In this document: positions 36,327 to 62,115 of the stretch, piece by piece | Layout: each line of letters opens with the position of its first letter | Position numbering within the stretch: position 1 is the stretch's first letter | IMG/VR virus record: IMGVR_UViG_3300044719_000150 | DNA: 64,000 bases | Strand: one strand, 5' to 3' | Source of the DNA: a virus | Taxonomy: Duplodnaviria; Heunggongvirae; Uroviricota; Caudoviricetes | Translations under genes and position numbers: made by a program | The notes under the pieces: model-generated | Told to the model about the DNA's origin: nothing | Database searches by the model: none | Seen by the model: the letters and a program-made list of their open reading frames with translations, nothing else

Positions 36327-36327
36327 G

Positions 36328-39926: not shown

Positions 39927-39929
39927 AGC

Positions 39930-40900
39930 CTCCGTTTTTCCGCAAGTCTCTGACCTGCGTAAAGGCTCACTCACTCACGGGCCGGTAAGCGAAGGGTGTA
40001 AGATCATCCTCCGTTTACCGGTTCGGCCGTTCTTAGCCTTACCTAAGTTCGCCTATCAATGGACTCGCGCGCACATGCGCGTCTGCGTTCCGCGCGCACG
40101 ATCGCAGACGCGCGCGCAGTAGGCGCCGACTGGAGTACCGCAGTAGGGCGAGGCGCCCCCCTGGGCCCTCCCATGCGTGCGGGAGGGTGCCCGGTCGGCC
40201 CTGTCATGCATAAGTATGATTATGCAGCATAGGAATGCACCCATAGGGGGCAAAGTGAATCCGATTCGAACGTGTGTATTGGAGTACCGCAGTACGGGCC
40301 ACGGTACGGCACTGTAGGCGCCCCGTAGGTACAGCCTGGCACTGAGAGACCAGCCACGGCTGTACGGCGCTCACAGACCACACTACGAGGCGTAGAAACG
40401 GCATCGTGGGATCGAGTGCCAGTGGAGTACTCCAGTTTGAAGATCATTTAGCCTTCCCCATACTGGTATACTCCAGTATTGAGGTACTCCAATTGAGGTA
40501 CCCCACCATGGGGAACGCCTCCACTGGAGTACTCCAGTAGGGCCCTGGTATGGCACTCCGGCGGGCGCCTAGTGCTAGGTGGGCACCTAGGTGAGTGCCA
40601 ACACGTTGCCCTACCTACAGTTCGGCTGTGTATGCCCACCTATGGTGGTGCCACCCTATAGTGACCATGGCTATGCGATCATGGTGCATGGGTGCTGTTG
40701 CGCATGTGGGCACTCATCTGTTGACGCGCGCGCAGATGTACACATCGCCGCATGTCAGGGCATGTATAGCGGCGCACATGTGTCAAGGGGATGATAAACG
40801 CACTTCAGGGGGCTGACGCGGGGGGAGCGCGGGGGCCACCATATTTACGCGGCCCCTCCTTTCCCGCCTTCCGCTTAACGTATCCGTGCCTCTGCTATCA
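39930..40900. repeat. non-coding palindrome-rich region: inverted repeats GCGCGTCTGCG..CGCAGACGCGC, CCTAGGTG..CACCTAGG and CCACCTATGGTGG, plus 5-6 copies of GGAGTAC(C/T)NCAGTA or TGGAGTACTCCAGT
   Basis: No ORF with an RBS across ~900 bp; lower GC; repeats counted directly. Confidence 0.55.
40874..40885 (+). promoter_or_regulatory. conserved motif CTTAACGTATCC followed by TATCAT and a leaderless-type ATG
   Basis: One of the right-arm copies; others at 41402-41412, 42857-42870, 43623-43633, 45251-45263, 49194-49205, 50194-50206, 51820-51834, 54161-54174, 56660-56675, 59575-59590 and 62098-62115. Confidence 0.5.
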
Positions 40901-40907
40901 TCTCTCC

Positions 40908-41132
40908 ATGGCCCGCAAATCCACCCTCTCCCTATGGTCCTCCCACGGGATCCGCCCCGGCAGTGTCCTGGACGTCGGCGGTGAGCACGTCCTGGTGCGT
41001 CGCGTCACCGGGAACTACCCTTCCACGCTCACCGTGGTGCGGGCCTCCTGGTGGCGCGTGTGGCCCCGCAAAGCCCTGTGGGCCGTGAAGCGTCTGCCCC
41101 ATAGGCGGAGGCAGCTGCTGGTCGGCGAGTAG
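40908..41132 (+). CDS. hypothetical protein
   Basis: ATG ~7 nt after TATCAT, no SD (leaderless-type). Confidence 0.45.
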   Translation: MARKSTLSLWSSHGIRPGSVLDVGGEHVLVRRVTGNYPSTLTVVRASWWRVWPRKALWAVKRLPHRRRQLLVGE

Positions 41133-41170
41133 GTGGGCCGGTGGCCGTCAACGGGTGGGCCTCGGCGTGC

Positions 41171-41392
41171 TCACTCCCAGATGCGCCGCAGCTGTTCTTC
41201 CCGCTGCTTGCGGTCTTTCGCCCACTGCACGCTTGCCTCGACCTCGGTCAGGGAGAGTCCCATGGCGGAGATCCGCCCGCCCCAGAGGTGGATGCAGTAG
41301 ACGCGTTTCGGCTTGTAGTGCCGGTCGCGGTGCAGAATGTACCCGTGGCGCAAGAGCCTGATTCTGGCGCCGAAAATCCTGATTCTCCACAT
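41171..41392 (-). CDS. hypothetical protein
   Basis: Divergent from the 41429 gene; its ATG is 10 nt from the motif (GATACGTTAGGCTAGGGGCATG). Confidence 0.4.
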   Translation of the reverse strand: MWRIRIFGARIRLLRHGYILHRDRHYKPKRVYCIHLWGGRISAMGLSLTEVEASVQWAKDRKQREEQLRRIWE

Positions 41393-41401
41393 GCCCCTAG
41401 C

Positions 41402-41412
41402 CTAACGTATCC
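41402..41412 (+). promoter_or_regulatory. motif CTAACGTATCC between divergent start codons 41392 (-) and 41429 (+)
   Basis: TAACGT (+) and TACGTT (-) -10-like hexamers overlap; TATACT lies 7 nt before the + ATG. Confidence 0.5.
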
Positions 41413-41428
41413 GTGCTATACTCTCCAC

Positions 41429-41722
41429 ATGGACTTCCCCGAACCTCCCGCCCTTGACGGCCCCGGCCCGTGGAAGAACACCCTGATGCTGTTCCTGGTG
41501 CCCGAGGAGGGCTCCGAGGTCGCCGTGAAGGATCTCATCCGTCCCCTCAACTGCCTGATCGACCTGTTCGAGTCGTGGGCGCCGGACAACCCGCAAGACG
41601 CGCTCCAGGTTGCCCGCCAGATCCACCTGCTGTGGCTGGAGATCCTGCAAGCCTTCTACGGGGACGAGTCCTTCTACGACCGGCCAGCTGTGGCTCCCAA
41701 GCACGTCGAGTGGAGCCTGTGA
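41429..41722 (+). CDS. hypothetical protein
   Basis: 97 aa; leaderless-type start. Confidence 0.5.
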   Translation: MDFPEPPALDGPGPWKNTLMLFLVPEEGSEVAVKDLIRPLNCLIDLFESWAPDNPQDALQVARQIHLLWLEILQAFYGDESFYDRPAVAPKHVEWSL

Positions 41723-41726
41723 CGTG

Positions 41727-42239
41727 ATAGAGTGGGAACCAACCAAACGCGGCGGTGTCCGTCGAGCAGGGGTAGCTCAGAGGAAGAGCGCTGGCCAGAT
41801 GAGCCAGAGGTCGGTGTCTCGAAAACATCCCCCTGCACTTCTCAAGTGGGCCGAGAAGCTCGGTCTGCCGGACTGCCCGTATGTGATCCGCTGGCGGCTG
41901 GAGCTGCCGTTCGGTTCGCTGCGGGTGCACCACTGGCTCGGTCCCGACGACGGCCGGGCGCCTCACGATCATCCCTGGTGGTTCCTGACCCTCGTGGTGC
42001 GCGGTGGATACACCGATGTCAGTCCTTCCGGCGACGAGCACCTGCGCGCCGGTTCGATCCGCTTCCGGCGGGCCCTGCACCAGCACACCGTGGTTCCCGA
42101 TCCCGGCGGGGCGTGGACGATCCTGGTCACCGGGCGCAAGCGCCGGGCGTGGGGCTTCTGGTTCGGCGGCCGGTTCCACAAGGCCAACCGGTGGTTCCTG
42201 CGCTACGGCCACCACCCGTGCGACAACGGCAAGCCCTAG
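41727..42239 (+). CDS. hypothetical His-rich protein
   Basis: GTG after GGAG; HHWLGPDDGRAPHDHPWW pattern (possible metal-binding fold). Confidence 0.45.
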   Translation: MEWEPTKRGGVRRAGVAQRKSAGQMSQRSVSRKHPPALLKWAEKLGLPDCPYVIRWRLELPFGSLRVHHWLGPDDGRAPHDHPWWFLTLVVRGGYTDVSPSGDEHLRAGSIRFRRALHQHTVVPDPGGAWTILVTGRKRRAWGFWFGGRFHKANRWFLRYGHHPCDNGKP

Positions 42240-42472
42240 CGCTTCCTGTTGCGGAACGGCGGGGGAACGGGGTAGATCAGCCTCGCGGGCTGGCTCAGGT
42301 CGAACCAGTCCACCGTCCCGAGGTCGGGGAAGTACACCCACGTGTGATCATGCTCGTCGCAGCGGTAGTGCTCGTGGTTGCGGTAGCCGTCGGTGCGCTG
42401 GGCGTAGTGGCACCGCTCGGGGCAGTCGATTCTCGCGTACGCCGAGTAGCATTCCATCACGCCACAATCGCC
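42236..42472 (-). CDS. hypothetical Cys/His-rich small protein
   Basis: CPERCHY...HEHYRCDEHDH. Confidence 0.4.
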   Translation of the reverse strand, partial: GDCGVMECYSAYARIDCPERCHYAQRTDGYRNHEHYRCDEHDHTWVYFPDLGTVDWFDLSQPARLIYPVPPPFRNRKR

Positions 42473-42837
42473 CGGTACAGCTCGATCCGGCGTCGGGCGA
42501 AAGACTCGTCGGCGAGCAGGGGCTCCGCCGCCACCAGTTCCATGGGATCGATCTCGCCGCTGTAGAGGGCGAGGTACTTGGTTCCCGCTGCGGCCGGGAA
42601 GACATGCACCTCGTAGGTGGCGGTGCCTGGGGCGAGGTGCAGTTCGCCGCCCTCGGTGGGGCTGGCGCCGGAGATGGCCAGCTCCTGACTGAACTCCCGG
42701 ATGAGCATGTCGGTCTGCGTGATGGCCAACGTGGACATCTTCATGATGCCGAGGGTGCGTTCCCAGCGGTTGCGCTGCTCCTGGTAGCGCGCGCAGTTCT
42801 CGCCCTGGCAGTCGGGGCACATTTCCACGGTGATCAT
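42457..42837 (-). CDS. hypothetical protein
   Basis: ATG MITVEMCPDC...; 126 aa. Confidence 0.5.
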   Translation of the reverse strand: MITVEMCPDCQGENCARYQEQRNRWERTLGIMKMSTLAITQTDMLIREFSQELAISGASPTEGGELHLAPGTATYEVHVFPAAAGTKYLALYSGEIDPMELVAAEPLLADESFARRRIELYRAIVA

Positions 42838-42929
42838 TGACAACCCCACACTCTATGGACTAACGTATCCCATATCCCAGTGGAGCACTTTCCACCAGGT
42901 TAATCATACCGCGAATGATCGGAGGCTGC

Positions 42930-43043
42930 CATGCCCGACGACCCGAAGGACCCGCAGACCGACAAGGACTTCAAAGAGGTGGACAAGAAGCTCAAGGAGG
43001 TCTTCCCGGACGGCAAGAAGCCGGACACGCCGAAGCGCCCCTA
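42930..43043 (+). CDS. hypothetical small Lys/Asp-rich protein
   Basis: RBS CGGAGG before the ATG; 37 aa. Confidence 0.4.
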
Positions 43044-43355
43044 GTCCTCGATCGGCCGCTCGATCCGCTCCCCCTTGCACGTCTCGCACAGGCGCTTCAC
43101 CCACTGCCCGTCCTCGTCTTTCGGCATGTCGTCGATGAAGGTGGGTTCCGGCAGCCGCATGACATTGCGACACTTGACGCACTGCACCTCGGAAACGATC
43201 AGCGGCAGCGAGTGCAGCACTGTGGACAGGTCGCTGATGAACTTGCCAGCCCCAGCGGAGCCGTGGGGGTACGGAAACTCCTTGTCGTCGTAAACGCCGA
43301 TGGAGGAGAACATCCACTTCCACAGCCTGGCGCCCGCCGCCGCGATCTCGCTCAC
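43041..43355 (-). CDS. hypothetical zinc-ribbon protein
   Basis: CVKC...CETC. Confidence 0.5.
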   Translation of the reverse strand: MSEIAAAGARLWKWMFSSIGVYDDKEFPYPHGSAGAGKFISDLSTVLHSLPLIVSEVQCVKCRNVMRLPEPTFIDDMPKDEDGQWVKRLCETCKGERIERPIED

Positions 43356-43449
43356 CGCTTACGCCTCCACAAGGGGTTGATGGCGATGGCGGCTCCGGCC
43401 GTGATGATCCCGGCGATGCCCAGGATGATGGCGATGGCGTTGTCGCTCA

Positions 43450-43614
43450 TCAGCTGGCTTTGCCGGGGTCGTGGCCCTTGTCGCCTTCCGGCACGCCCTC
43501 GGGGTTCTTGGCCCTGGCGGCGGCTTCGCTTTCCTTGCGCTCGGTCGCCGTCACGTCGTCGGACTCGTACCTGCGCAGCCCGTCCTGGTTCTTGTTCGGT
43601 TCGTCTCTGGTCAT
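43450..43614 (-). CDS. hypothetical small protein
   Basis: ATG preceded by GATACGTTAGGCTAGGGGC, the same 19-mer as upstream of the 41392 gene. Confidence 0.35.
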   Translation of the reverse strand: MTRDEPNKNQDGLRRYESDDVTATERKESEAAARAKNPEGVPEGDKGHDPGKAS

Positions 43615-43623
43615 GCCCCTAGC

Positions 43624-43914
43624 CTAACGTATCTCGTCCACGATGTCACGCACCTCCCACTGCATCGGCTTCAGGTGCACGATCTGCCACGGCTGCGGCT
43701 CGGGATTCGTGGAGCGCTCGCCCCAGACCGGGCCACCGTAGGGCGGACTCACGAACCATACGATGGCGTCCAGTTCGGTGCCCTCCGAGGGCTCGAACGC
43801 GATCACCTCGTCGCCGACCTCCAACCCCCAGCTAGCCGGTACCCGTCGCCGCAGGCACTGGCCGGTGCGGTCGCGGGCGTTGTAATCCACCTGGATGCGT
43901 CTCACATCGGGCAT
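43624..43914 (-). CDS. hypothetical protein
   Basis: ATG (MPDVRR...) after GAGTGAGGG; its stop codon lies inside the motif CTAACGTATC. Confidence 0.45.
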   Translation of the reverse strand: MPDVRRIQVDYNARDRTGQCLRRRVPASWGLEVGDEVIAFEPSEGTELDAIVWFVSPPYGGPVWGERSTNPEPQPWQIVHLKPMQWEVRDIVDEIR

Positions 43915-44383
43915 GAAGGCCCTCACTCTCTCGGGTGATGTTGACGTTATATATGTCCACACGTTAGTGTGGATGGTGGCGGGTGGGTAGCGGGCAGTAG
44001 ACTGGACCGAAGAACAGACCGCAGCTTACGAGGGTAGTTCCGGGGGCGGATGCCCCCGCTGTGTCTCCACCCAAATCACGAAATCATCACGGCGTCGCAC
44101 CCTTCTCCTCGGTGCCGCCGCTTTTTTTATGCCCCCAGGGTCACGATTCGGCATCTTTCGGCCTCTGACCTGCGACGTCTCAGTATATGAGATGCTCTCG
44201 ATACCCTTTCGTGGAGGGCATCCGAGACCCTAACCCTCTCCCATACCCCCACCGATACCCTTTCGGCTCCGTCTCACATACTGAGAAAACCGGTTTAGTG
44301 CCCTGCTAGCGCCATCCCAAGGATCAGCCCCCACATGGCCCCGTAGACGAAGACCCCGATGACCACCAGCCACTCCCCGCCCC

Positions 44384-44893: not shown

Positions 44894-45234
44894 CAGTGCC
44901 CTCCATCCCAGCGCCGCAGCGCCGCCTTGGTCCTCGGCCGGTAGCCGGGCCCGTTGCAGCCGCACGAGCTGTAGCGAACCCCCTGAGCCAGGAGGCTAAT
45001 GACCGTAGCCCAGCCGCTCTTGTCCCGCTTGCGCGGCGGCTTGAAGTCCCGGCCCGCGTCGATCATGGGTCGCTGGCAGTGCGGGCACCTCCTGGGCGCC
45101 ATGGGCTCCGGGTCGAGGCCGATCAAGACGGCAACCGTGGGGTCCATGCTGTAGTCCGGCTGGTGTTTGAAGCTGACACAGCAGGTCGTGCAGACCCAGT
45201 GCGTCTTGTAGAACTTCATCGCGTATCTGCACAT
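44893..45234 (-). CDS. hypothetical Cys-rich protein
   Basis: Multiple CxxC pairs. Confidence 0.5.
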   Translation of the reverse strand: MCRYAMKFYKTHWVCTTCCVSFKHQPDYSMDPTVAVLIGLDPEPMAPRRCPHCQRPMIDAGRDFKPPRKRDKSGWATVISLLAQGVRYSSCGCNGPGYRPRTKAALRRWDGGH

Positions 45235-45348
45235 GCCCCGAGACTAGCATGACTAACGTATCCGTGCTAGGCTCCTCCCATCCGGGCAAGTGCGCCTGCG
45301 GAACCCAATCCACATCCGCCCGGACCCCCGACCGGAAGGAGTTCCCGT

Positions 45349-47703: not shown

Positions 47704-47705
47704 GA

Positions 47706-48687: not shown

Positions 48688-49184
48688 GCCATCTTGACAT
48701 ACACAGAATTGCGCCACCAGGCTTGGGCGTATGCGGCGTTGAGCGCCTTGCACACGTTCTGTGCGTCGCGTTTGCGCATCGGGTCCAGGAAAACGACATC
48801 GCGCCCCCCCTGCCGCACCACCCACCGCCGTCCGAGTAGCGCGTCGAGCGCATTGTGGCGCCGTGTTGTCCAGTAGCCCGCCTCCGCCCGGCCGACCGTG
48901 TAGAGGGCCTCCTCGGGAGGCTTCGGCCGCACATAGACCTCCGCCTCCGGCGGGTCGGTTCTCCCCGGCGCGGCGAGGGCCGCCACCCAGGCGCGCAGCT
49001 TGTCGGACTCGCTGTGCGGCATGCGCGCCGTGACGCCCCCGAGTTCGCCTCCCACGCTAACGCTGATGCGCCCGGCCGTGGGGGTGTAGACGAGCCCCAC
49101 CCTGCCATCGTGTGGGGATGACCAGTAGAAGCCCACTGCTTCCACCGGGCCCGCGCCGGGCCTCTCGATCGCCGGGGTTTCCAT
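48684..49184 (-). CDS. hypothetical protein
   Basis: 166 aa; its ATG is 30 nt from the divergent ATG 49214, with the motif in between. Confidence 0.55.
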   Translation of the reverse strand: METPAIERPGAGPVEAVGFYWSSPHDGRVGLVYTPTAGRISVSVGGELGGVTARMPHSESDKLRAWVAALAAPGRTDPPEAEVYVRPKPPEEALYTVGRAEAGYWTTRRHNALDALLGRRWVVRQGGRDVVFLDPMRKRDAQNVCKALNAAYAQAWWRNSVYVKMA

Positions 49185-49193
49185 TCGACCAGC

Positions 49194-49205
49194 TTAACGT
49201 ATACC
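49194..49205 (+). promoter_or_regulatory. motif CTTAACGTATACC shared by divergent genes (ATG 49184 on -, ATG 49214 on +), both apparently leaderless
   Basis: Read directly; overlapping TAACGT and TACGTT hexamers. Confidence 0.5.
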
Positions 49206-49213
49206 CTACCTCC

Positions 49214-49762
49214 ATGCCCGGACTTTACGTAAAGAAACCCCTACCGGTCGAAGCTATGCAGTACACCGGCGACAACTTCGCCGAGATCGACGCATGGGTG
49301 GGCGAGGACCGCTTCCGTCCCCGCGACGACGGCTCCGTCTATACCGCCCGCGTGTACGACGCTCTGCATGACACCTGGGTCGGCGTGCGTGACGGGGACT
49401 GGATCATCAAGGGCGTGCACGGCGAGTTCTACCCCTGCAACAGCTCGGTGTTCGCCGAGACGTACCAGGAGGCCACCGGCGCGACCGGCTCGTACTTCGG
49501 CGACGAATACCAGTTCCTGCGCCAGGAGCGCGCCGTCGGCTTCGTGACCGCGATCGACACCGATGGTTATTTCGAAGTCAAGGAGCTGGGTGGCTCGGGC
49601 CCCTCCGAGCGTTGGTTTCCGCCGGAGATGCTCCTGCCGGTGGAGTTCGAGCGCCTCAAGGAGGGCGCCAAGGTCATCTACACCAGCGAGGTCGCCCTGT
49701 GGCCCTTCGGCCGCCGCGTGGGACTCGACACGATCGTCCTGGCGGAGGACCCGACGCAGTGA
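49214..49762 (+). CDS. hypothetical protein
   Basis: 183 aa. Confidence 0.55.
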   Translation: MPGLYVKKPLPVEAMQYTGDNFAEIDAWVGEDRFRPRDDGSVYTARVYDALHDTWVGVRDGDWIIKGVHGEFYPCNSSVFAETYQEATGATGSYFGDEYQFLRQERAVGFVTAIDTDGYFEVKELGGSGPSERWFPPEMLLPVEFERLKEGAKVIYTSEVALWPFGRRVGLDTIVLAEDPTQ

Positions 49763-50199
49763 CTAATCCGCTGCGTCCCCAGTGCAGCCATTTCTTCGGC
49801 GGCTTCCTGGAGCCCTGCGAGGTGCTCACGGAGACCGTCTGGGACGGCGTGGTGCTGCGCATCGACCAGGAGGACGACCGGTTCGCGGCGAGTATCAGGC
49901 AGTGGATACGCACGGACGAGTTCGGCTCTTACACCCTGTCCGAGGAGATCGACATCTCCTTCGACGCAGTCCGTGAAGGCCAGCGGGTACGCAAGGGCGA
50001 CACGTTCACCTACATCGTCCAGGTGGTGATCACGCCGTACACCTATGCACTGGGCAAGAGCGTGCTCTCCCGCTCGATCGCGGTGTTCCCGTCTCGGAAG
50101 GCGACGGGCGGGTACCCGCCCCTGAGCTTCACCTCGATCCCGAAGGAGAGCGCTTTCGGGGTGCCGGTGCCGACGACTTGGCTCGACACCTTCGACTAA
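49759..50199 (+). CDS. hypothetical protein
   Basis: GTGA overlap with the upstream stop. Confidence 0.5.
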   Translation: MTNPLRPQCSHFFGGFLEPCEVLTETVWDGVVLRIDQEDDRFAASIRQWIRTDEFGSYTLSEEIDISFDAVREGQRVRKGDTFTYIVQVVITPYTYALGKSVLSRSIAVFPSRKATGGYPPLSFTSIPKESAFGVPVPTTWLDTFD

Positions 50200-50213
50200 C
50201 GTATACTGCCTCC

Positions 50214-50555
50214 ATGATACCCGAGCAGATCGAGGATGCCATCCGCGCTTTCGACTTCGACGAGTACGATCTCCCCAGGGACCTGCCGCAGTACGGGGAC
50301 GGTCAGTGGGTCACGGATCTCGCCGAGAAGATCGCCCGTCTCTGGCTCCACCCGGTGCCCATGAACGCCGAGACGCTCTCCGAGGTGTTGGCCGACATGA
50401 GCGAAGCAGTGAAGATCCACGACTCGTTCGACGGCTCGATCTCCTACGAGATGAGTGACCGGCGGGAGAACGAATACGACGTCATGTTCGCCTACCGCTA
50501 CGGCAACGCCACGCACGGCCAGGGCTTCATGAGGATGGGCAGGGGGGACCTGTGA
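50214..50555 (+). CDS. hypothetical protein
   Basis: TATACT 7 nt before the ATG; motif at 50194-50206. Confidence 0.55.
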   Translation: MIPEQIEDAIRAFDFDEYDLPRDLPQYGDGQWVTDLAEKIARLWLHPVPMNAETLSEVLADMSEAVKIHDSFDGSISYEMSDRRENEYDVMFAYRYGNATHGQGFMRMGRGDL

Positions 50556-50794
50556 GGGACCTGCGCTCCCGCATTGCCGAGGCGCTGGCGGAGCACGAAG
50601 ACGTCGCCGCTGAACATGGGCACGCCGGATCGGTCGGCAACGACATGTACGATTCGTGCTGCCTTGATGTGATCATGGCCGCTGTCGAGCCAGACCTGGA
50701 AGAATTGAAGATCCTCGACGCGCTCTACGCCGCCGGGGTGGACAACTGGGATGGCTACAGCGAGGCCATGCGACTGATGCGGAGCGGATCGTGA
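50552..50794 (+). CDS. hypothetical protein
   Basis: GTGA overlap with the upstream stop. Confidence 0.5.
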   Translation: MRDLRSRIAEALAEHEDVAAEHGHAGSVGNDMYDSCCLDVIMAAVEPDLEELKILDALYAAGVDNWDGYSEAMRLMRSGS

Positions 50795-51611: not shown

Positions 51612-51826
51612 ACCGCTTCAAGCCCGGTGACCGTGTCACCACCCTCGACTGCCCGTCAGAGGGCATCGTCCTGCGGGCCGAGTACAACGGCCTCCAGGGG
51701 ATCTGGGAGTACGTGATGGATTGGCCGGACTTCCCAGACGACAGCCGGATCTACGTGGAGGGCGAGCTGAAGTTCGCCCCGACCTCCGGTAAGTGGTGGG
51801 AAGAGGGCCCCGACCTCTTGGATTAA
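51608..51826 (+). CDS. hypothetical protein
   Basis: GTGA overlap; its TAA stop lies inside the motif GGATTAACGTATATC. Confidence 0.5.
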   Translation: MNRFKPGDRVTTLDCPSEGIVLRAEYNGLQGIWEYVMDWPDFPDDSRIYVEGELKFAPTSGKWWEEGPDLLD

Positions 51827-51919
51827 CGTATATCGCGTGCTACTCTAACGTCATCCGGGCTATTGAGCGTGCGAAACCCAACCCTGAACCGCCCGGACAT
51901 CAACGAGAGGAGGCCAGAT

Positions 51920-52072
51920 ATGCAGGTCGTCATCGCAGTGCTCATCGCCGCCGTCACAGCGGTCTTCATTATTCACATCTACGGCTATCTGCCCGAGCAC
52001 GACTACGACTACCCTGCGTGGGTGCACCGCATCGCCGTGGCGATCCGCTCCCACTGGAGGGCACATGCCTAG
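51920..52072 (+). CDS. hypothetical small membrane protein
   Basis: RBS GAGAGGAGG before the ATG; hydrophobic. Confidence 0.4.
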   Translation: MQVVIAVLIAAVTAVFIIHIYGYLPEHDYDYPAWVHRIAVAIRSHWRAHA

Positions 52073-52806: not shown

Positions 52807-52950
52807 TCATCTTGATGCGTCGTACAGGTACTGGCCCTCGTGTCAGAGCCTTGTTGAGCGCTTCGATCTCTTCAGCTGTCCACGGGCGGCAGATCGCCCA
52901 GCGATATCGCTTCGCCGCCGCCCGCTCGGGGATGCGCCTCGGCGCCGGTC

Positions 52951-53858: not shown

Positions 53859-54144
53859 CCGGCTCGTAGGGCGCCCAGGTCTCGTACTGGTTCGGTTCCC
53901 GCACCGGCGGCAGCTCGTGCCCTAGCGCGATGACGCCCTGCTTGGCCTTGGCGCGCAGGCAGTGGTCGCAGATGTTTGTCTCCAGGAACCGGCGACCCAT
54001 CTCGTCGAACACCGTGGAGCCGTAGTGGCCGAACGAGGTGAACGTCGTGGCGCCGTACGGCTGGCGCTGGTCATGGTCCGGCCATACCGGCTCGGGCACG
54101 CGCCCGCACAGCAGGCACGGCAGTGGCCAGGTGATCTCAGGCAT
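53839..54144 (-). CDS. hypothetical protein
   Basis: Its ATG is divergent from the 54191 gene, with the motif GGACTAACGTAGAC in between. Confidence 0.5.
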   Translation of the reverse strand: MPEITWPLPCLLCGRVPEPVWPDHDQRQPYGATTFTSFGHYGSTVFDEMGRRFLETNICDHCLRAKAKQGVIALGHELPPVREPNQYETWAPYEPDEDDEA

Positions 54145-54190
54145 GACCTCATTCTAGCACGGACTAACGTAGACGCGCTATAGTGGAGAA

Positions 54191-55714
54191 GTGATGATCA
54201 CCCCGAAACGAACGCTCGCAGTCGCCTGCACCCTCGCCCTCGCCCTCCCCGCTACGGCGCGCGCCTCAGTGCAGGTGGGCGGCCCCTTCGTCGGCTCGAC
54301 CGGCTTCTACGACTACTCGCCCTCCTCCATCCGCGACGCGAACACCGAGACCGTGTGGTGGTGCGGCGACACGGCCAGCCATCAGACCGACTCCATCCTC
54401 GAAGAGCAGTACAGCCTCGCGGGGTGGACCGTCGCGGTCCCCGAGCGCCAGGTGCTCGCTGAAGGCCCTGCGGGCAGCTGGGATTCCATGTTCACCTGCA
54501 ATCCGAGCGTGGTTGAGGGCAGTTTCGCCAATCCGTTCGGCGACGGGCAGAACTACACGTACGCGATGTACTACGTCGGCACGACCAGCGGCTCGGACAA
54601 CTCGATCGGGGCCGCGTTCTCGAACGACGGCGGCACGTGGCGCAAGTACCCGACGCCGGTCGTGCGGTTCACGGACACCGGCCACGGCTACTACGGGTAC
54701 GGCCAGCCGAACGCGGCGATCGTGAACGGCCAAGTCGAACTTTTGTTCGAGGATAGCGACGCCTCGCCCCAGTCGGGGCCGGTGCGCTCCCACGCCGCGT
54801 TTCCGGCTCGCCCGCAGGCCCAGCACGTCCTCGGCCGGGCAGTGGCTGCGGCGTTGACAACGCATTGGTACACGGTCAGCAGCGACGGCGCGCACTTCGG
54901 TCCGCCGGTCCCGATCGCCTCGTCCGGACTGCCCGATCCGACGCCCTCCTGGGGCGGCGCGGCATTCGACCCCCAGGACGGCCGGTGGTACGCGCTCTTC
55001 AACGGACCGTTCCGCCCGGCGGCAACCACAGGTTCTGTCGCGGAGCGCGGGCAGGTCGGCGTCACGCTCTACGCGACCAGCAGCCTGGCCAGCGGCCCGT
55101 GGATCGAGCTGGGCACCATCGACACGGCCGTCACGGGCAGCGAGGCGAACTTCATCGCAGGCATGGTGCGCGATCCGGGCGGCAACCTGTCGCCAGCTTT
55201 CCTGCCCGGAATCAAGATCGACCTGTCCCAGTCGTGGCCGCGACCGGCGTACAACGCGTTCGGCCCCCAGCTCGGCGCCAGCGGCGCGTTCAACAACTGG
55301 CAGATCGGTTGGGCGCTTTGGAACCAGGGCGCGCCGTACCGCGCCCTGCAACGCGTGGACTACTCCGGCGGCCACCACGAGGTCACCACCGGCTGGTGGG
55401 ACGCGTCGGTCTACCACCTGGAGAACGTGAACCTCGGCAAGCTCGCCGAAGCCCCTACCAGTACCGCGACCGTCCCGGTGTACTTGTGCAAGGCGGCGGC
55501 CACCGACTACGTGGACACGCTTCACGCGGACTGCACTGGCTGGTATCAGGCCGGGCTGCTCGGCTACATCTCCCCGGCGCCCGGCACGGGGCTGATCCCG
55601 ATCTACTCGTGCATCAGCCCCGCCGGGCATTTCGTCTCTCCGGATCCGGCTTGCGAAGGTCAGAGCACTGACACTCTTGAACCGGGCGGCCTACTGGGCT
55701 ACGCCCAGCCCTGA
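54191..55714 (+). CDS. secreted protein (signal peptide; possible glycoside-hydrolase-like beta-propeller)
   Basis: N-terminal signal peptide MITPKRTLAVACTLALALPATARA; 507 aa; TATAGT and GGAGAAG lie upstream. Confidence 0.6.
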   Translation: MMITPKRTLAVACTLALALPATARASVQVGGPFVGSTGFYDYSPSSIRDANTETVWWCGDTASHQTDSILEEQYSLAGWTVAVPERQVLAEGPAGSWDSMFTCNPSVVEGSFANPFGDGQNYTYAMYYVGTTSGSDNSIGAAFSNDGGTWRKYPTPVVRFTDTGHGYYGYGQPNAAIVNGQVELLFEDSDASPQSGPVRSHAAFPARPQAQHVLGRAVAAALTTHWYTVSSDGAHFGPPVPIASSGLPDPTPSWGGAAFDPQDGRWYALFNGPFRPAATTGSVAERGQVGVTLYATSSLASGPWIELGTIDTAVTGSEANFIAGMVRDPGGNLSPAFLPGIKIDLSQSWPRPAYNAFGPQLGASGAFNNWQIGWALWNQGAPYRALQRVDYSGGHHEVTTGWWDASVYHLENVNLGKLAEAPTSTATVPVYLCKAAATDYVDTLHADCTGWYQAGLLGYISPAPGTGLIPIYSCISPAGHFVSPDPACEGQSTDTLEPGGLLGYAQP

Positions 55715-55727
55715 CGCGCAGGCGGCA

Positions 55728-56642: not shown

Positions 56643-56671
56643 GCGTCCTTCCTTTCATTGATACTAACGTA

Positions 56672-57055
56672 TCACAGCGACCTGCATCCCGCAGCAGCCA
56701 GGGCGCTCTCCAGAACGTCGAAATGCGGCATCGCCCGAGCCGTCCCGACTATCACATACGTCGATCCCGGCCGCTGGAAAATCTGCTGCGAGAACTGCAC
56801 CAACACTGCGTCGTGATACCGGTTCAGCTTACGGTAAGCGCAATACCGCTGATACTCGTCGTAGTTGCCCGCGATCACCATGAGCACGCCCCTCGACGGC
56901 TCCTGGTATATCGCCAGCCGCTGCGTATCCTCCTGGCCGTACTCGACGCGCCGCCGCCTGCTCCTGCGCCGGTGAACCCACCACACCACGGCCGCCACCA
57001 AGGCGGAGCCGAACATGGACGCGGCGAGCACCAGCTGCTCGACCACCGCGTTCAC
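56672..57055 (-). CDS. hypothetical membrane-anchored protein
   Basis: GTG after GGGGGAA. Confidence 0.4.
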   Translation of the reverse strand: MNAVVEQLVLAASMFGSALVAAVVWWVHRRRSRRRRVEYGQEDTQRLAIYQEPSRGVLMVIAGNYDEYQRYCAYRKLNRYHDAVLVQFSQQIFQRPGSTYVIVGTARAMPHFDVLESALAAAGCRSL

Positions 57056-57197
57056 GGACACTTCCCCCAACAGCTGTAGTTGTGCCTCGGGCACTGGTAG
57101 TCGTAGGAGGCGTACCGCCAGCACTTCAGGTGCAGCCGGTGCGAGCGGTGGTGGCAGCGCTGGTAGTATCCACGGCCGAGGATGAGGTCGATGATTC

Positions 57198-58116: not shown

Positions 58117-58201
58117 GGGTGCCCTCCCGAAAGTAGAGGCACCCACGGTAACACCCGATCTTTGCCCTGGGATACGCTACGGCGAATTCACGCCATCGCG
58201 T

Positions 58202-58867: not shown

Positions 58868-58884
58868 TGGGCATTCCCCTCTCA

Positions 58885-59574
58885 TCAGGTCCAGTAGAAC
58901 AGTCGAACATCCTTGAGCCATCGCTCGACGGCGTCCCTGTCGGGTTCATCGGGCAGCACTGTGGGTGTCATGTCGAACAGCGTCTCGTAGGACGCGATCA
59001 GCTCCTCAGCCACGCCGATGTCACCTTCGGCCACCGCCTCCCCGAACTCCCGGAAGGTCTCCGGGTGCTCCAGCCGGATCACCAGCTCGCCGGTGGCGTA
59101 CAGGTGGAAGCCCTGGTAGCACAAGCGCATCAGGTGCCGGGCGTGTTTGGCGGTGCGCTTGCGGGTGTCGGCGCTGAACGAGCCGTCCCCCCGGTTCTTC
59201 AGCCGCGTGAACTGCTGCGTGGCGTAGCCGAGGTAGGCGTCGCGCACCAGCCTGGCCGACAGGAACCGGTCCCGGATGCGCAGCAGCTCCTGGCCCATGC
59301 GGGACATCTGCTCGTATCCGGACAGGAACAGCAGCTCCAGCACGGTCGGGTTGCACTTGAGTGCCAGGCGCACATACTTCAGCGCCTCGTGGAGCGTGAC
59401 GTCCGGCTCGTGCTCCACGATGCTGTCCTGTAACGCATTCAGTCCGAGCAGGTCGAGCGTGTTGTACGCGAACATGCCGAGCCGGTCTACGTCGGAGTCC
59501 GGACCAGCGAGTCCATACGCGGTCGATCCGACCACGCCGGACAGCATAATGTTGCGGTGCGGTGGGGTGTGCAT
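58885..59574 (-). CDS. putative nucleotidyltransferase (Pol-beta superfamily fold)
   Basis: GSxxxG...DSDVD pattern (SGVVGSTAYGLAGPDSDVDRLGMF); its ATG directly follows the motif GTGATACGTTAGTCCC (leaderless-type). Confidence 0.55.
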   Translation of the reverse strand: MHTPPHRNIMLSGVVGSTAYGLAGPDSDVDRLGMFAYNTLDLLGLNALQDSIVEHEPDVTLHEALKYVRLALKCNPTVLELLFLSGYEQMSRMGQELLRIRDRFLSARLVRDAYLGYATQQFTRLKNRGDGSFSADTRKRTAKHARHLMRLCYQGFHLYATGELVIRLEHPETFREFGEAVAEGDIGVAEELIASYETLFDMTPTVLPDEPDRDAVERWLKDVRLFYWT

Positions 59575-59614
59575 GGGACTAACGTATCACATACACACCC
59601 CTGCGCGCCAGGCC

Positions 59615-60520
59615 TCAGAACGCGCCGAAAGCGACCTGGTTACAGTGCAGCTTCAGCCCGTTCCGCCACATGGAGACGACCCTGTTGCGATCATCCCAGA
59701 CGCCGAGCACGTTGTAGTTGTCACGGATGTACTTATCGAACATCCACAGCTTGACAATGTCGTCGGCGTCATTGTTGTCCAACGGGCGCATGAATAGGTC
59801 ATGGTAAGGGATCAGCTTGCGGTTGGCCGCCAGCCAGCGCTCAGTGTGCTCTCGGAACTCACTCTTGCGTCCTGAGAACAGAATCACCAGAATGCCCGCC
59901 TCGTAGTGCATGCGCAGCTGTCGTGCAACCTCCAGGTTGACCAGGTCCGTCTCGACCTTGTCGAACTCGTAAGGGCCACGCCCATCGTGCAGCGCGAGAC
60001 AACCGTCCAGGTCCCAGAGCGTGCACGCGGGCAGCGACGGGTCCGGCACATACGGCACCGCGATCGGCCGGTCGTTCATCCACTCGCTGGTCAGCCGCCA
60101 GCCGCCCTTGCGAGCACCCTCCATGCTCTTCGCGAGCTTCATGATGACGCCCTCGCCGACATGGCCGACGGTGCGCTGGGCGTCGCGTTCGACGCACTTC
60201 TCGATCGGCGTGCCGGTCAGGTCGTGCACGTCGAAGACCGCGTCCGGCAGGTCGTAGAACGTGTCCTTGTAGAGCTTCGGCAAACGCTTGGTGAGATGGG
60301 TGTTGTCCAGCACTATGTCAGTACCCATACTCGCCACCGCGTGCGCTCCTTGGACCATCGCCTTGACGGCGAGGCGCTCGCGCTCCCGGGACCAGTTCTC
60401 GCCGGTGAAACCCATCATCGCCCGGTAGTCGTCCAGATTGAAACGCGGAACGCCCAGCGTGCGGGCGAACGTACTTTTGCCCGAGGCTGGCAACCCACTC
60501 ATTACGTGAATTTTCTGCAT
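59615..60520 (-). CDS. pnkp: polynucleotide kinase-phosphatase (T4 Pnkp-like: N-terminal P-loop kinase, C-terminal DxDG phosphatase)
   Basis: Walker A GLPASGKST at the N-terminus; LWDLDGCLALHDGRGPY (DxDGxL) in the C-terminal half. Confidence 0.8.
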   Translation of the reverse strand: MQKIHVMSGLPASGKSTFARTLGVPRFNLDDYRAMMGFTGENWSRERERLAVKAMVQGAHAVASMGTDIVLDNTHLTKRLPKLYKDTFYDLPDAVFDVHDLTGTPIEKCVERDAQRTVGHVGEGVIMKLAKSMEGARKGGWRLTSEWMNDRPIAVPYVPDPSLPACTLWDLDGCLALHDGRGPYEFDKVETDLVNLEVARQLRMHYEAGILVILFSGRKSEFREHTERWLAANRKLIPYHDLFMRPLDNNDADDIVKLWMFDKYIRDNYNVLGVWDDRNRVVSMWRNGLKLHCNQVAFGAF

Positions 60521-60888
60521 CTACCCCTCCTCTCGCACCCTCTTGATGCCGAAGTTCTGGCCTGCTTTGGTCGGGATCCACAGCCCGTCGCGCACGCAGC
60601 CTAGCGCGATCATCGGCTCCTGCATCACCAGCGCGGTCATGTCGCTGGCGAACATCGGCCAGTCGCGCCGCTCCTCGTCCCTCCAGTAGAAGGTGATCGA
60701 GGAGCGGCCACGGCCGTAGCCGGAGAGGGTGAGCGTGGCCCGGAACGGCTCGACCGGCCGCCAATCCGGATCCACCATGTCACCCTCATACTCATACTGG
60801 TCCACGTTCCACACGACCCGGCGGCTCTTGCCCGGATACTCCATCAGGCAGCCGTTGGCGTCGAACGGGGCCGTGCGGTCCCAGGCCA
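60521..60888 (-). CDS. hypothetical protein between the ligase and kinase genes (GTG overlapping the ligase stop)
   Basis: In-frame protein-like segment coupled on both sides (TAGTG upstream, TAGATG downstream). Confidence 0.4.
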
Positions 60889-62070
60889 CTAGCCCTCCTC
60901 GTCGGTGGCGAAAGCCCGCAGCCCGCTCGGCTTGCACGCCTTCCATGCCAGCTCGTTGATCGATTTGTTGTCGTAGAGCCGGAACAGTGCGGAGCTGTAA
61001 CCGCTCGGGACCGCCTCGGCCGCGAACTCCCTGCGTCCATTGACGGCCTTGTCGAGCACCGCCGAGTACGCCATGAGCGCCGCGACCAGCCAGGCGTCGT
61101 GCTGCTGCTGGAGCCGGTCGGAGACGTCCTGCACCCAGCGCATGAACTCGTCCGGCACATCCTGGAGCAGGTCGTCGAAGCTGCTGCCGTGGGCGAGCAC
61201 CTCCCAGACCGTCTTCTCGTTCATGCCGGTCAACACCGCGTGCAGCCGGACGTAATCCGCGAGCTTGATCTTCACCCGCAGGCCATGATCTGGGTAGTGC
61301 AGGACGTAGCCCTCCAGGTCCGAGCCCGAGCGCACCGCGCCGTTGACATCGGCGCTGCGGCCCGCGAACTCGACCAGCACGTCCAGCGGCATCTGCGGCC
61401 AGGAGCGCACCACGGAGCCGATACGCATCCAGGTCGGCGCGTGGTAGTCCACCGCCAGCTCGCCGCCGTAGGCGTTGTAGACGCCGAGCAGGACGAGATC
61501 CTGCCGTCCGCCGTGGTTGACCACGATCCGGTTGGTCGGGTACACGATCTCCGCGAGGTACGTGTTCGCCGGGTCCAGCGGGTCGGTGACCGGCCGGTCG
61601 AACTGGTCGTGCCGATCGATCCACCGCTGCGCCCACTGCGCCTGCTCCGAGATGAACGAGCCGCGCGACGCGGCCCTCCACCGCAGCTGACGCCGGTCCC
61701 AGAAGACGATGCCGAGCGAGCCGTCCACCTTGTCGTAGATGGTGAACTCGGCGTCCTGGGGCAGGTCCGGAGCCCACGGGTTGCCGTGCCCGTGCTCGGA
61801 GTAGTTGAAGAACTTCGGGAACGGCCAGGCCACGATGCGGCCGGTCTCGTCCTCGGCGATCAGTCCCCGGCAGCGCGTGGTCACGTTGTTCCAGTGGTGC
61901 CCGTACTGGACGGCCTCGGTGTAGTTGTAGATGCTCAACCCGTCGCCGGACCGGCCGACGCGAATGTGGCCCGCGTCGATCTCAGCCTGGAGCGCGCCAG
62001 GACCGAACAGCTCGTCGAGCGTGGTCATCCAGACCCCCTCTCGTGAATCAGGCTGCGGCGTGTCATCCAT
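60889..62070 (-). CDS. ATP-dependent RNA ligase (T4 Rnl-like nucleotidyltransferase motif I KxDG)
   Basis: TIYDKVDGSLGIVFW motif I; 393 aa; alternative start at 62028 after GAGAGGGGG. Confidence 0.7.
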   Translation of the reverse strand: MDDTPQPDSREGVWMTTLDELFGPGALQAEIDAGHIRVGRSGDGLSIYNYTEAVQYGHHWNNVTTRCRGLIAEDETGRIVAWPFPKFFNYSEHGHGNPWAPDLPQDAEFTIYDKVDGSLGIVFWDRRQLRWRAASRGSFISEQAQWAQRWIDRHDQFDRPVTDPLDPANTYLAEIVYPTNRIVVNHGGRQDLVLLGVYNAYGGELAVDYHAPTWMRIGSVVRSWPQMPLDVLVEFAGRSADVNGAVRSGSDLEGYVLHYPDHGLRVKIKLADYVRLHAVLTGMNEKTVWEVLAHGSSFDDLLQDVPDEFMRWVQDVSDRLQQQHDAWLVAALMAYSAVLDKAVNGRREFAAEAVPSGYSSALFRLYDNKSINELAWKACKPSGLRAFATDEEG

Positions 62071-62097
62071 TGAGTAGAGACTCTTTCATGGCCGCAA

Positions 62098-62115
62098 CAG
62101 GACTAACGTATCAGG
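62098..62115 (+). promoter_or_regulatory. motif CAGGACTAACGTATCAGG upstream of the ligase operon (minus strand); it contains the stop codon of the HTH gene
   Basis: Read directly. Confidence 0.5.

Follow-up and report, generated by a model that had tools for sequence, protein, structure and literature searches.

A recurrent asymmetric motif as a candidate promoter core, with direction set by its flanks, across the non-structural half of a previously undescribed phage genome

Why does one short sequence lie near almost every promoter of the non-structural half of a phage genome, in both orientations and in several promoter settings? We addressed this question in a 64,000-nucleotide stretch of DNA (the window) from an undescribed phage of ~120 kb with 41 tRNAs, where the shared motif, GGACTAACGTAT-CAC, spans 12–15 bases. 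The literal 15-mer, GGACTAACGTATCAC, has a single exact copy in the window (59576–59590), and eight matches appear when ≤2 mismatches are allowed (0.07 expected). Conservation covers less than this full length; the 8-mer core, TAACGTAT, has 16 exact copies where 0.2 are expected. When the window is scanned with a 16-position weight matrix, 27 sites score ≥12 bits, where the null gives ~1.8, and 26 score ≥14 bits, where it gives 0.6; the source contig carries seven further copies outside the window, in its flanking parts. The information is concentrated in GAC-TA(A/G)CGTAT (~17 bits), while the flanking G and CAC carry little overall.

All 27 copies are located at gene boundaries, 24 of them fully non-genic and three in the last codons of genes, a placement with P = 8e-14 given the non-genic share of the window (0.21). 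The copies reported in the initial annotation were recovered, both those in plus orientation (6658, 7658, and all 12 right-arm sites) and the reversed ones at six tRNA-island sites and in mid-region promoters, and copies at 1893, 2722, 8704, and 36293 were added to that list. Several stop codons had been said to fall inside the motif, and we count seven in the window. Most copies cluster in the non-structural half; the portal gene and the structural genes downstream of it, ~21 kb in all, have only one. Of the 16 copies in the right ~45 kb, 15 share a single genomic orientation (P = 5e-4), which is accounted for only partly.

The motif had been described as a near-palindromic -10 element. Its symmetry is real at the centre, TA-ACG-TA around ACGT, but is limited to it, the GGAC and CAC flanks being asymmetric. 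The central hexamers are suited to -10 use: the centre would provide two overlapping -10 hexamers, TAACGT and TACGTT, on opposite strands, with -11A and -7T reciprocally paired, as in known bidirectional promoters (PMC10268837). Three putative promoter architectures can be distinguished around it, which we term R-class, F-class, and adjacent class. A plain -10 reading leaves unexplained the inner bases and the GAC that are kept in both orientations.

In the R-class, the motif is read as (T/C)GTG-A-TACGTT-AGTCC, where TGTG on the CAC side would create an extended -10 promoter that works without a -35. On the left, this class comprises GGACTATCGTATCAC (1893–1907, +), which faces minus-strand genes and contains the stop codon of gene 1904–2647, GGATTAGCGTAGCAC (2722–2736, +; CGTG-C-TACGCT), and the copies at 8704–8718 (−; TGTG-C-TACGCT on the plus strand) and 24790–24804 (−). 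A degenerate copy at 3766–3780 (−) reads GTGATACGTTCTCCC on the plus strand, with TGn and TACGTT. In the tRNA island, R-class copies head the array (15394–15408, −) and occupy inter-tRNA positions (16817–16831 and 17333–17347, −), and at 19685–19699 (−) TACGTT ends 11 nt upstream of tRNA-Tyr (19706). The same distance separates the -10 of a diverged R-class copy (15514–15546, +; TGGACA, 16 bp, TG-A-TACAGT-AGGAC) from tRNA-Met (15553). In the right arm, the copy at 56661–56675 (+; TGTG-A-TACGTT) contains the stop of gene 56672–57061 and faces a gene on the minus strand that has SD GGAAGGA and starts at GTG 56642. The one at 62100–62114 (+ reading; locus 62030–62114, −) contains the stop of an HTH_17 gene (62103–62306) and precedes, via a hairpin and SD, the RNA ligase start at 62028. 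The exact 15-mer (59576–59590, +; locus 59572–59590) reads TGTG-A-TACGTT on the minus strand, 6 nt from the leaderless ATG 59574 of RlaP, and lies within a conserved hairpin.

In the F-class, TTGACN is followed by a 17–18-bp spacer and (G)GAC-TAACGT, so that a TTGACN at this distance from the GGAC side would, with the motif read forward, give a classical promoter. At 7639–7672 (+), the TTGACT that had been paired with the motif is indeed present (7639–7644), with a spacer to TAACGT of 17 rather than 16 bp; GGAC-TAACGT-ATGCA follows (7658–7672) and contains the TAA stop of gene 7365–7664. Four minus-strand promoters carry TTGACG: 29664–29697 (29692–29697, 17 bp, CGAC-TAGCGT, then an SD leader), 33007–33040 (17 bp, CGAC-TAACGT), 34637–34671 (18 bp, GTAC-TAACGT), and 36293–36326 (17 bp, GGAC-TAGCGT). 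On the plus strand, 42837–42871 has TTGACA (42837–42842), 18 bp, and GGAC-TAACGT, and GGATTAACGTATACC (6658–6672, +) stands in a forward context. Each of the eight TTGACN-N16-18-TANNNT candidates in the window has, as its -10, either the motif or a derived form of it.

TG at -15/-14 is found at 12 of the 15 copies that have a gene ahead of them in the reverse reading alone (reverse-only) and at none of the 11 forward-only copies (Fisher P = 5e-5), and a -35 at 6 of 11 forward-only and none of 15 reverse-only copies (Fisher P = 0.002). Both elements follow gene direction and never occur together at one copy; clade-wide, TG is present at 38 of 67 unique sites, a -35 at nine, and both at none (P = 2e-4). 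The -10 hexamers of the two classes are reverse-complementary, not identical, which indicates that the duplex is conserved rather than a reading of the transcribed strand.

In the adjacent class, a separate TANNNT lies 0–12 bp from the motif and exactly 6 nt before an ATG or GTG. The initial annotation had assigned the motif itself as the -10 of the divergent pairs 41392/41429, 49184/49214, and 54144/54194 (the last start taken here as 54191), with leaders of 4–20 nt. Each of these starts has its own TANNNT 6 nt upstream, in many cases preceded by TGn. The genes would thus be leaderless, each transcribed from a -10 of its own, and the motif, which is not their -10, sits beside or partly under those elements at variable distance. 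At 41390–41431, ATG 41392 (−) follows TAGGCT (41399–41404) and ATG 41429 (+) follows TGc-TATACT (41417–41422), around the motif at 41399–41413. At 49182–49216, TAAGCT serves ATG 49184 (−) and TACCCT (49202–49207) ATG 49214 (+), the motif being at 49191–49205, while at 54142–54193, TGc-TAGAAT (54151–54156) serves ATG 54144 (−) and TATAGT (54179–54184) GTG 54191 (+), with the motif at 54161–54175. The motif is kept at 41403, 49195, and 54165 with neither TG nor -35. Single leaderless starts have the same arrangement: ATG 40908 (40872–40910, +; motif 40872–40886, TGc-TATCAT 40896–40901), ATG 50214 (50193–50216, +; motif 50193–50207, containing the TAA that ends the preceding gene and overlapping TATACT 50202–50207), and ATG 43614 (43612–43635), where minus-strand TAGGCT (43621–43626) lies in a plus-oriented motif (43621–43635) that contains the stop of gene 43624–43926. 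The identical GATACGTTAGGCTAGGGGC-ATG reported before two minus-strand genes is confirmed at starts 41392 and 43614. At 45232–45347, the motif (45250–45264) is flanked by TGc-TAGTCT (45241–45246) for ATG 45234 (−) and TGc-TAGGCT (45268–45273) on the plus side, and at 51820–51920 (+), the motif (51820–51834) precedes TGc-TACTCT (51841–51846), a hairpin, an SD, and gene 51869. The TANNNT-to-start spacing peaks sharply at 6 nt (13 cases, against 0–5 at other spacings), and of the window's 25 such patterns, 12 are ≤45 nt from right-arm copies, where 0.43 are expected. These leaderless -10s vary (TATACT, TAGGCT, TAGAAT, TACCCT, and others), whereas the inner bases of the motif hardly do.

A newly noticed element accompanies many of these promoters: a 45-nt covarying hairpin, with a 7-bp stem and a ~31-nt conserved loop, that starts at predicted +1 to +4 and also fills inter-tRNA spacers. 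Whichever way the motif is oriented, the hairpin begins 4–8 nt past its hexamer (7676, 2721, 3783, 24804, 62098): 5 nt past it at 2722–2736, 4 nt past TACGCT at 24790–24804, and 7 nt downstream of the copy at 3766–3780, heading a plus-strand gene block. The hairpin based at 7676 is followed by an SD and the gene at 7741, tandem hairpins occupy 6675–6787, and at 45281 and 51854 the hairpin begins 7 nt past the separate TGn-TANNNT. The copies could be alike through duplication and recombination of a mobile or concertedly evolving cassette of promoter, stem-loop, and SD, serving as exchange points for accessory genes, as described for the PeSLs of T4-like phages (PMC4122927). The repeated co-occurrence of the three parts, the near absence of copies from the structural genes, and the variable gene content beside motif sites would fit: PNKP and RlaP are adjacent in the window, separated by two genes in one relative (L167), and by IF3-L35-L20 plus two genes in another (L165). 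However, cassette copying would not yield the motif in both orientations relative to hairpin and transcript (7676 versus 62098, 2721, and 24804), the flanks of the 12–15-bp core are unrelated between copies, and recombination between them is putative; we regard this origin as distinctly unlikely.

The motif is real and, as comparison of sequences indicates, under selection, because it is enriched, intergenic, and identical in its core at orthologous sites of genomes ~70% identical in DNA. It is the best-conserved block of orthologous intergenic regions among the relatives compared and is kept where proteins are only 56–65% identical (56–66% for an XRE-type protein); it is absent from relatives with a portal identity of 53–60%. 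The constraint is not absolute, since some forward-class orthologues have lost GGAC (GCAT-TAACGT) and one carries TAATGT (L167). Upstream of portal, the motif is the sole conserved element, and the conserved 18-nt block corresponds exactly to the distance that separates a pair of predicted divergent starts.

That correspondence would suit a set of strong but ordinary housekeeping-sigma promoters with a bidirectional TA-NNN-TA core and no extra factor, as would the exact register of -35 and TG with the hexamers, the agreement of the reciprocal -11A/-7T with published bidirectional promoters, and diverged copies (15532–15546; TAATGT) that retain TANNNT and TG while the inner bases change. The extra conservation would then reflect common descent, optimisation for the host RNA polymerase, and dual use of the flanks, the discriminator of one direction being the extended -10 region of the other. 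This account, which we consider somewhat unlikely, does not explain the conserved inner ACG, reverse-complementary between classes, or the motif beside self-sufficient leaderless promoters, and other -10s of the same genome vary freely. Nor does it explain the copy at 22316–22330 (−), which fills the 10-nt gap between tRNA-Ala (ending at 22316) and an Rfam-only tRNA (22327–22398), for which it cannot be a productive promoter.

We hold with moderate confidence that the motif is a shared promoter core whose direction is set by its flanks, and that a dedicated DNA-binding regulator probably binds GACTAACGTAT and controls the non-structural genes together. Indeed, all three settings and both orientations preserve the same 11–12-bp duplex, including inner bases to which housekeeping sigma is indifferent, from which we infer a putative regulator; used as a -10 in either orientation or placed beside leaderless promoters, the motif is probably read by one factor besides ordinary sigma. 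Its retention at 22316 argues for such a reader, as does its presence at the three sites with neither TG nor -35. At the leaderless genes with their own TGn-TANNNT, the motif, 0–12 bp off, would lie inside the RNA polymerase footprint, and the regulator could act most simply by occluding the -10 region, as a timing switch or global shut-off. The sequences show the anatomy, the statistics, and the conservation of the motif; the transcription start sites and the factor, with its identity and sign of effect, are predicted. The motif at the portal promoter is easier to reconcile with an activator, or with a plain promoter, than with a repressor that simply acts on early genes, and a host factor would likewise be compatible with so deep a conservation among diverged phages. 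The variable recognition helix of the XRE protein (SVSAMNSLERA to SVASFAALEKS, with the motif unchanged) counts against it as binder, as does, for the BldC-like HTH_17 protein, its identity of only 43% in a motif-keeping relative.

Asymmetric sites, >30 in number, that occupy promoters and short gaps between genes and contain stop codons recall the stoperators of Cluster A mycobacteriophages (PMC9283540), at which a lysogeny-type repressor blocks initiation and elongation and so silences the genome, and HTH_3 repressor-like and ParB-like genes are encoded. Such a role is very unlikely: orientation is not tied to transcription (15 reverse-only versus 11 forward-only copies), at most sites the motif would itself supply the -10, ~80 kb of sequence showed no integrase, and 185,579 species genomes yielded no prophage relatives. 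Promoters of a phage-encoded sigma factor or RNA polymerase would fit the clade specificity of the motif and the presence of two ~190-aa proteins with a sigma-70 region-4/LuxR-type HTH and weak PHROG "sigma factor" matches. We give this reading hardly any credence: such promoters are strictly oriented with transcription, while the motif is used both ways and flanked by classical -35 or TGn elements, and the two proteins resemble LuxR/NarL-type response regulators better.

The closest analogues are PeSL cassettes, stoperators, and bidirectional promoters. Middle and late promoters of Thermus phage P23-45 have an extended -10 (TGn or TRTGn) without a -35. The reverse class, (T/C)GTG-N-TANNNT without a -35, is similar, but here there is no variation in the discriminator AGTCC or inside the -10, and one duplex would also serve -35-dependent promoters that point the other way. 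D29 Gp36 is a small MerR/BldC-like repressor of early and late genes at specific sites (PMC12266134); our phage likewise encodes BldC-like HTH_17 proteins, one ending inside a motif copy. Unlike the motif, the Gp36 targets are GC-rich direct repeats at few sites, and the HTH_17 link to the motif is putative, the helix differing in a motif-keeping relative. In PeSL cassettes (PMC2839356, PMC4122927), too, a stem-loop lies next to a conserved sigma-70-type promoter; the unit recurs many times in variable non-core regions, beside small ORFs and changing gene content. They differ in that the phage lineage is unrelated, the promoter core is here used in both orientations, recombination is putative, and the hairpin, at the predicted transcript 5′ end, is not terminator-type. 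Cluster A operators and stoperators (L5 gp71 type; PMC9283540, PMC6550527) are likewise dozens of asymmetric 13-mer-scale sites in promoters and short gaps, often overlapping stops, and imply genome-wide control by one DNA-binding protein; in our phage, in which no gp71-like repressor or sign of lysogeny was found, motif orientation is not bound to transcription and the motif would double as a -10. Bidirectional bacterial promoters owe their two directions to symmetry of the -10 (Warman et al. 2021; PMC10268837, PMC12825309); TAACGTA similarly pairs -11A and -7T of opposite-strand hexamers, with divergent starts predicted 18 bp apart, and several copies are flanked by divergent genes. Here, by contrast, one 12–15-bp sequence recurs >34 times per genome with inner bases and flanks conserved, and the majority of copies have a gene ahead of them in just one direction, the added TGTG or -35 apparently setting the direction.

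The repeated promoter-core sequence (target GGACTAACGTATCAC) is a genuine window-wide repeat, but its conserved unit is shorter than the 15-mer of the initial annotation, which is found once as an exact copy and eight times at up to two mismatches. The core TAACGTAT is present in 16 copies versus 0.2 expected, and a weight matrix trained on 24 seed sites retrieves 27 copies in the window at a cutoff of 12 bits, where shuffled sequence yields 1.8, and 26 at a cutoff of 14 bits, where it yields 0.6. Twenty-four of the 27 copies are fully non-genic, the non-genic share of the window being 21% (P = 8e-14), and the remaining three lie in the last codons of genes. The contig flanks hold seven more copies, and the ~80 kb examined holds 34 sites in all, placed at gene boundaries. 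As first described, the copies lie at the stated coordinates and in the stated orientations, two genes are preceded by the same 19-mer, and stop codons fall within the motif. The −35 element at 7639–7644, said to stand 16 bp from the hexamer, is 17 bp away, and the motif proved less symmetric than the "near-palindromic" element proposed: its symmetry is confined to the ACGT centre, and a palindrome or dimeric operator was rejected on this ground.

The window has a GC content of 64% and corresponds to bases 21870–85869 of a 119,921-bp metagenomic contig (JGI 3300061719 Ga0466962_0000012). It carries 40 tRNAs detected by ARAGORN plus one found by Rfam alone, and the RNA-repair genes for RNA ligase, PNKP, and RlaP. 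The 50,697 deposited phage records include no close relative; a 20-kb megablast query against INPHARED and a tblastn search with a 579-aa ORF returned no matches. The best protein match is a Streptomyces phage PNKP, 38% identical. Relatives are known from metagenomes only, one 96–98% identical and several more distant. The high GC content, the TANNNT −10 elements, the frequency of leaderless starts, and an HTH protein of the BldC family together suggest an actinobacterial host, with Deinococcota as an alternative. A portal search of GTDB genomes for a prophage or host gave a sole match, 31% identical, in Bradyrhizobium; no integrase was seen in the ~80 kb examined of the ~120-kb genome, and no prophage relatives were found.

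Several other features of these genomes deserve mention. A small protein with a T7 gp5.9-like RecBCD-inhibitor domain (PF25708, 5e-9) is encoded at 50552–50794 (+). The type II hammerhead ribozyme family RF02276 has a match at 32670–32740 (−), at the 5′ end of a 579-codon ORF (31000–32739), which scores 37.7 bits versus a gathering score of 37 (E = 4.6e-4). The segment at ~37800–40800, between the mid-region and the right arm, has few confident ORFs and a lower GC content (~0.60). To the right of the window (positions 1–6500 of contig L081) lie genes for a Thg1-like protein, a second RNA ligase, an XRE-type HTH protein with a Cys-rich C-terminal domain, and a 1183-aa portal protein. In the 120.8-kb relative L165, infC-rpmI-rplT (IF3, L35, L20) at 4459–5600 (−) separates PNKP from RlaP, a motif copy standing immediately upstream of it, and weak Hint and faint LAGLIDADG domain matches in the portal gene (1468 aa) hint at a possible intein. 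The more distant relative L090 (70% GC) carries, near its portal region, a different repeated element: arrays of ~50-nt units at 2150–2480 (−) and 4810–5770 (+), each unit with a conserved CGCACCTAC...CCGGTACGCGGGC stem-loop.

In a relative whose coding DNA is ~70–78% identical, the orthologous intergenic regions keep 14–18 identical bases at the motif, while the surroundings have drifted. Upstream of the portal gene, which has the motif without a −35, the only blocks common to three genomes are CCGGACTAACGTATCACA and the SD plus ATG. The motif is kept in relatives whose neighbouring XRE-type protein is 56–66% identical; it is absent from those with a portal identity of 53–60%, and the distant relatives L088 and L089 have no comparable repeated motif. 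In a 14-mer scan of IMG/VR, multi-copy high-GC matches are limited to this clade, and a full-text literature search with motif strings returned unrelated primers only. The distribution along the genome is uneven: the structural genes from the portal onward (~21 kb, contig L168) have a single copy, and positions 10001–20882 of contig L087 have none. In the right ~45 kb, 15 of 16 copies share one genomic orientation (P = 5e-4); this bias can in part be traced to minus-strand genes with a reverse arrangement and plus-strand genes with forward or adjacent arrangements.

The promoter arrangements fall into three classes. Read towards the gene, the reverse class, (T/C)GTG-A-TACG(T/C)T-AGTCC, has the form of an extended −10 element without a −35 and is found before tRNAs and the minus-strand RNA-repair block; its hexamer TACGTT stands 6 nt before the leaderless ATG at 59574, and the hexamers at 19689–19694 and 15536–15541 (a diverged copy) each end 11 nt before a mature tRNA 5′ end. 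The forward class consists of TTGACN, a 17–18-bp spacer, and (G)GAC-TA(A/G)CGT, followed by an SD-bearing leader, and all eight TTGACN-N16–18-TANNNT candidates in the window contain the motif or a derivative of it. Five paralogous promoter cassettes on the minus strand (29692–29708, 33035–33051, 34666–34682, 36321–36337, and ~37752–37768) share the layout TTGACGG(G/C)GCGCCAGT, a −10, and a ~35-nt leader ending in ...GATCATG; the fifth has GGAC-TAGTCT instead of the motif core. In the adjacent class, found in the right arm, the genes are leaderless from hexamers of their own, which are diverse (TATACT, TATCAT, TAGGCT, TAAGCT, TAGTCT, TAGAAT, TATAGT, and TACCCT) and often preceded by TGn.

Sites were classed by the reading, forward or reverse, in which a gene or tRNA comes next: 15 were reverse-only, 11 forward-only, and 8 both. 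The flanking signals track gene direction: TG at −15/−14 occurs in 12 of 15 reverse-only versus 0 of 11 forward-only sites (Fisher P = 5e-5), and a consensus −35 in 0 of 15 versus 6 of 11 (Fisher P = 0.002). Most reverse-only sites carry TG one base upstream of TANNNT, as in extended −10 promoters, for which a −35 is not required. Among 67 unique sites across the clade, TG is present in 38, a −35 in nine, and both in none (P = 2e-4). Because TG and −35 follow gene direction and never co-occur, the central hexamers probably act as −10 elements at those sites; the pattern is hard to explain otherwise. TAACGT and TACGTT share AACGT within TAACGTA in 23 of the 27 window copies, giving the TA-NNN-TA pattern of reciprocal −11A/−7T pairing; this is the geometry described for bidirectional promoters whose starts lie 18 bp apart (PMC10268837). 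A scan with the E. coli promoter consensus was uninformative, TAACGT matching TATAAT at only 3 of 6 positions, and terminator-like sites were not enriched (11 versus 7.5, and 6 versus 10.7). A promoter for a phage sigma factor or RNA polymerase is barely credible: it would call for a single orientation, and both occur relative to genes and to the hairpin at +1.

The initial reading of the motif as a −10 element is partly supported: it probably holds at the sites with TG or −35, but is not the best reading at the divergent gene pairs. There, SD-less leaders of 4–20 nt driven by TAACGT or TACGTT had been proposed; the genes are better read as leaderless from their own TANNNT. In leaderless-mRNA promoters of high-GC bacteria, TANNNT ends 6 (±1) nt before the start codon and an SD is lacking, and the right-arm genes agree with this. 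The spacing peak is sharp, with 13 cases of TANNNT-N6-(A/G)TG at candidate starts versus 0–5 at other spacings, and 12 of the 25 TANNNT-N6 patterns of the window fall within 45 nt of the 12 right-arm copies, versus 0.43 expected (P = 5e-14). The motif lies anywhere from a 3-nt overlap to 12 nt away from the leaderless hexamer, and a role as −35 or activator box of these promoters was rejected because of this variation (−3 to +12 nt). An RNA-level motif was rejected too, since both orientations occur relative to transcripts.

A second conserved element stands beside many motif copies: a hairpin of ~45 nt in all, with a 7-bp stem and a ~31-nt loop containing CCAAA...CGAAACCCA. When 19 copies drawn from several genomes are aligned, 94.7% of the cells pair versus 73% in shuffles, five of the seven stem pairs show compensatory changes, and the covariation score (0.547 versus 0.132) is reached by none of 500 shuffles and collapses in slid controls. 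Its covariance model, R1, has 26 matches in the window, 23 on the plus and three on the minus strand, all on the transcribed strand of their region; examples are 7671–7743 (+), 2655–2727 (−), 16233–16305 (+), 51848–51920 (+), 62604–62677 (−), 22928–23000 (+), 45275–45347 (+), and 62030–62103 (−). The hairpin also occurs in contigs L081, L084, and L165–L169, and an Rfam search matched no family. In mRNA leaders the stem begins 4–8 nt after the −10 (predicted +1 to +4), in at least seven cases, and is followed by the SD and start codon; in the tRNA island it begins 0–4 nt after tRNA 3′ ends. A tRNA-like 3′ end, GCGGGTTCGACTCCCGCCGGGCGCA, called by neither ARAGORN nor Rfam, lies at ~8600–8663 (+) and is directly followed by a hairpin (stem from 8664) and a motif copy (8704–8718). 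The stem follows the motif's own hexamer in forward (7676) and reverse (2721, 3783, 24804, and 62098) arrangements, and at 45281 and 51854 it follows a separate TGn-TANNNT, the motif being 23–26 nt upstream, so that both halves of the promoter model are supported. The hairpin also corrects the RNA ligase start to 62028, with an SD before it, in agreement with the JGI call. An upstream TGGCCG box considered as a −35 was rejected, since it proved to be the covarying hairpin's own 3′ arm. The hairpin may be a 5′-end protective or processing element. At the PNKP/RlaP junction the motif lies inside another stable hairpin (z = −3.2 to −4.4; 59560–59612 (−) in the window, 1645–1700 in L002, and 2935–2995 in L167), kept in three relatives with different stem sequences. 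That the module of promoter, hairpin, and SD was spread by copying of cassettes, as for the promoter/stem-loop (PeSL) cassettes of T4-like phages, agrees with its composition, its position outside the core regions, and the gene variability next to motif sites, but is unlikely given that motif and hairpin are combined in either relative orientation.

Other −10 elements of this genome vary freely; the motif's inner bases (A/G)CG and its GAC flank hardly vary. A plain family of strong promoters, acting with no extra factor, would fit the register data but not this inner-base conservation, and we consider it doubtful. The hexamers of the forward and reverse classes are reverse complements of one another, and their being kept implies that the conservation belongs to the duplex rather than to the strand read by sigma. 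The motif also persists next to leaderless promoters that are self-sufficient and provide it with no TG or −35. One copy takes up the whole of a 10-nt spacer between tRNAs, where transcription would begin within the following tRNA; a tRNA at 22327–22398 (+), found by Rfam only (49.8 bits) and missed by ARAGORN, begins 10 nt after tRNA-Ala and abuts the copy at 22316–22330. Across all three architectures, the motif is confined to −30 to −2 relative to a predicted start. In the simplest unifying reading, a sequence-specific DNA-binding protein would act on all motif promoters; a host factor is also possible as its reader.

Candidate binders in the ~80 kb examined are a 156-aa XRE/HTH_3 protein encoded 2.5 kb from the portal gene, two BldC/excisionase-like HTH_17 proteins, one of which (62103–62306) ends inside the motif copy 62100–62114, two LuxR-type HTH proteins (one at 5973–6533 and its paralogue), and one ParB-like protein (14802–15344). 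A relative with the motif has an identical XRE helix, and one without it a different helix; this supportive first comparison was weakened by three motif-keeping relatives with altered helices, and the case from helix/motif co-variation was dropped. The HTH_17/BldC-like protein was rejected, its recognition helix having diverged in a relative that keeps the motif. The LuxR-like protein has only two homologues.

We tentatively propose that the asymmetric 12-bp duplex may serve both as an orientation-independent bidirectional core promoter and as the operator of one putative monomeric regulator. Together with the 45-nt 5′-terminal hairpin, it would govern how the entire accessory half of a new ~120 kb phage clade (~40 units, the 41-tRNA island among them) is transcribed and its RNA processed. 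The −10 element itself would then contain a global control system of the stoperator type. If the model holds, direct tests become feasible of how one short sequence lets a large phage coordinate dozens of small transcription units, how TGTG or a −35 added to a symmetric −10 core sets promoter direction, and how regulation is shared between leaderless and leadered genes. For this uncultured clade the motif offers a ready map of ~40 predicted promoters with their start sites, and the compact promoter/5′-hairpin module could find use as a genetic part in high-GC hosts.

Known phage systems invite comparison. Like the operators and stoperators of Cluster A mycobacteriophages, which form over 20 asymmetric sites of ~13 bp in promoters and in short gaps between genes, the motif recurs at gene boundaries (34 sites in ~80 kb). 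Unlike theirs, its orientation does not follow transcription (15/11/8 classes). The Cluster A system relies on a monomeric immunity repressor in temperate phages; here HTH_3, HTH_17, and LuxR-type proteins in the ~80 kb examined are candidates only. With the orientation rule failing and no sign of lysogeny in the portal search of GTDB genomes, a stoperator-like repressor system is very unlikely. The PeSL cassettes likewise join a conserved sigma-70-type promoter directly to a stem-loop in many repeats (here 26 R1 matches) and prefer variable, non-core regions, as does the motif. Indel and exchange breakpoints lie at PeSL cassettes; what was seen here is variable genes beside the PNKP-RlaP motif site in three relatives. 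The finding combines known kinds of element, namely bidirectional and extended −10 promoters, genome-wide phage operator motifs, and PeSL-type cassettes, with an associated hairpin that is new.
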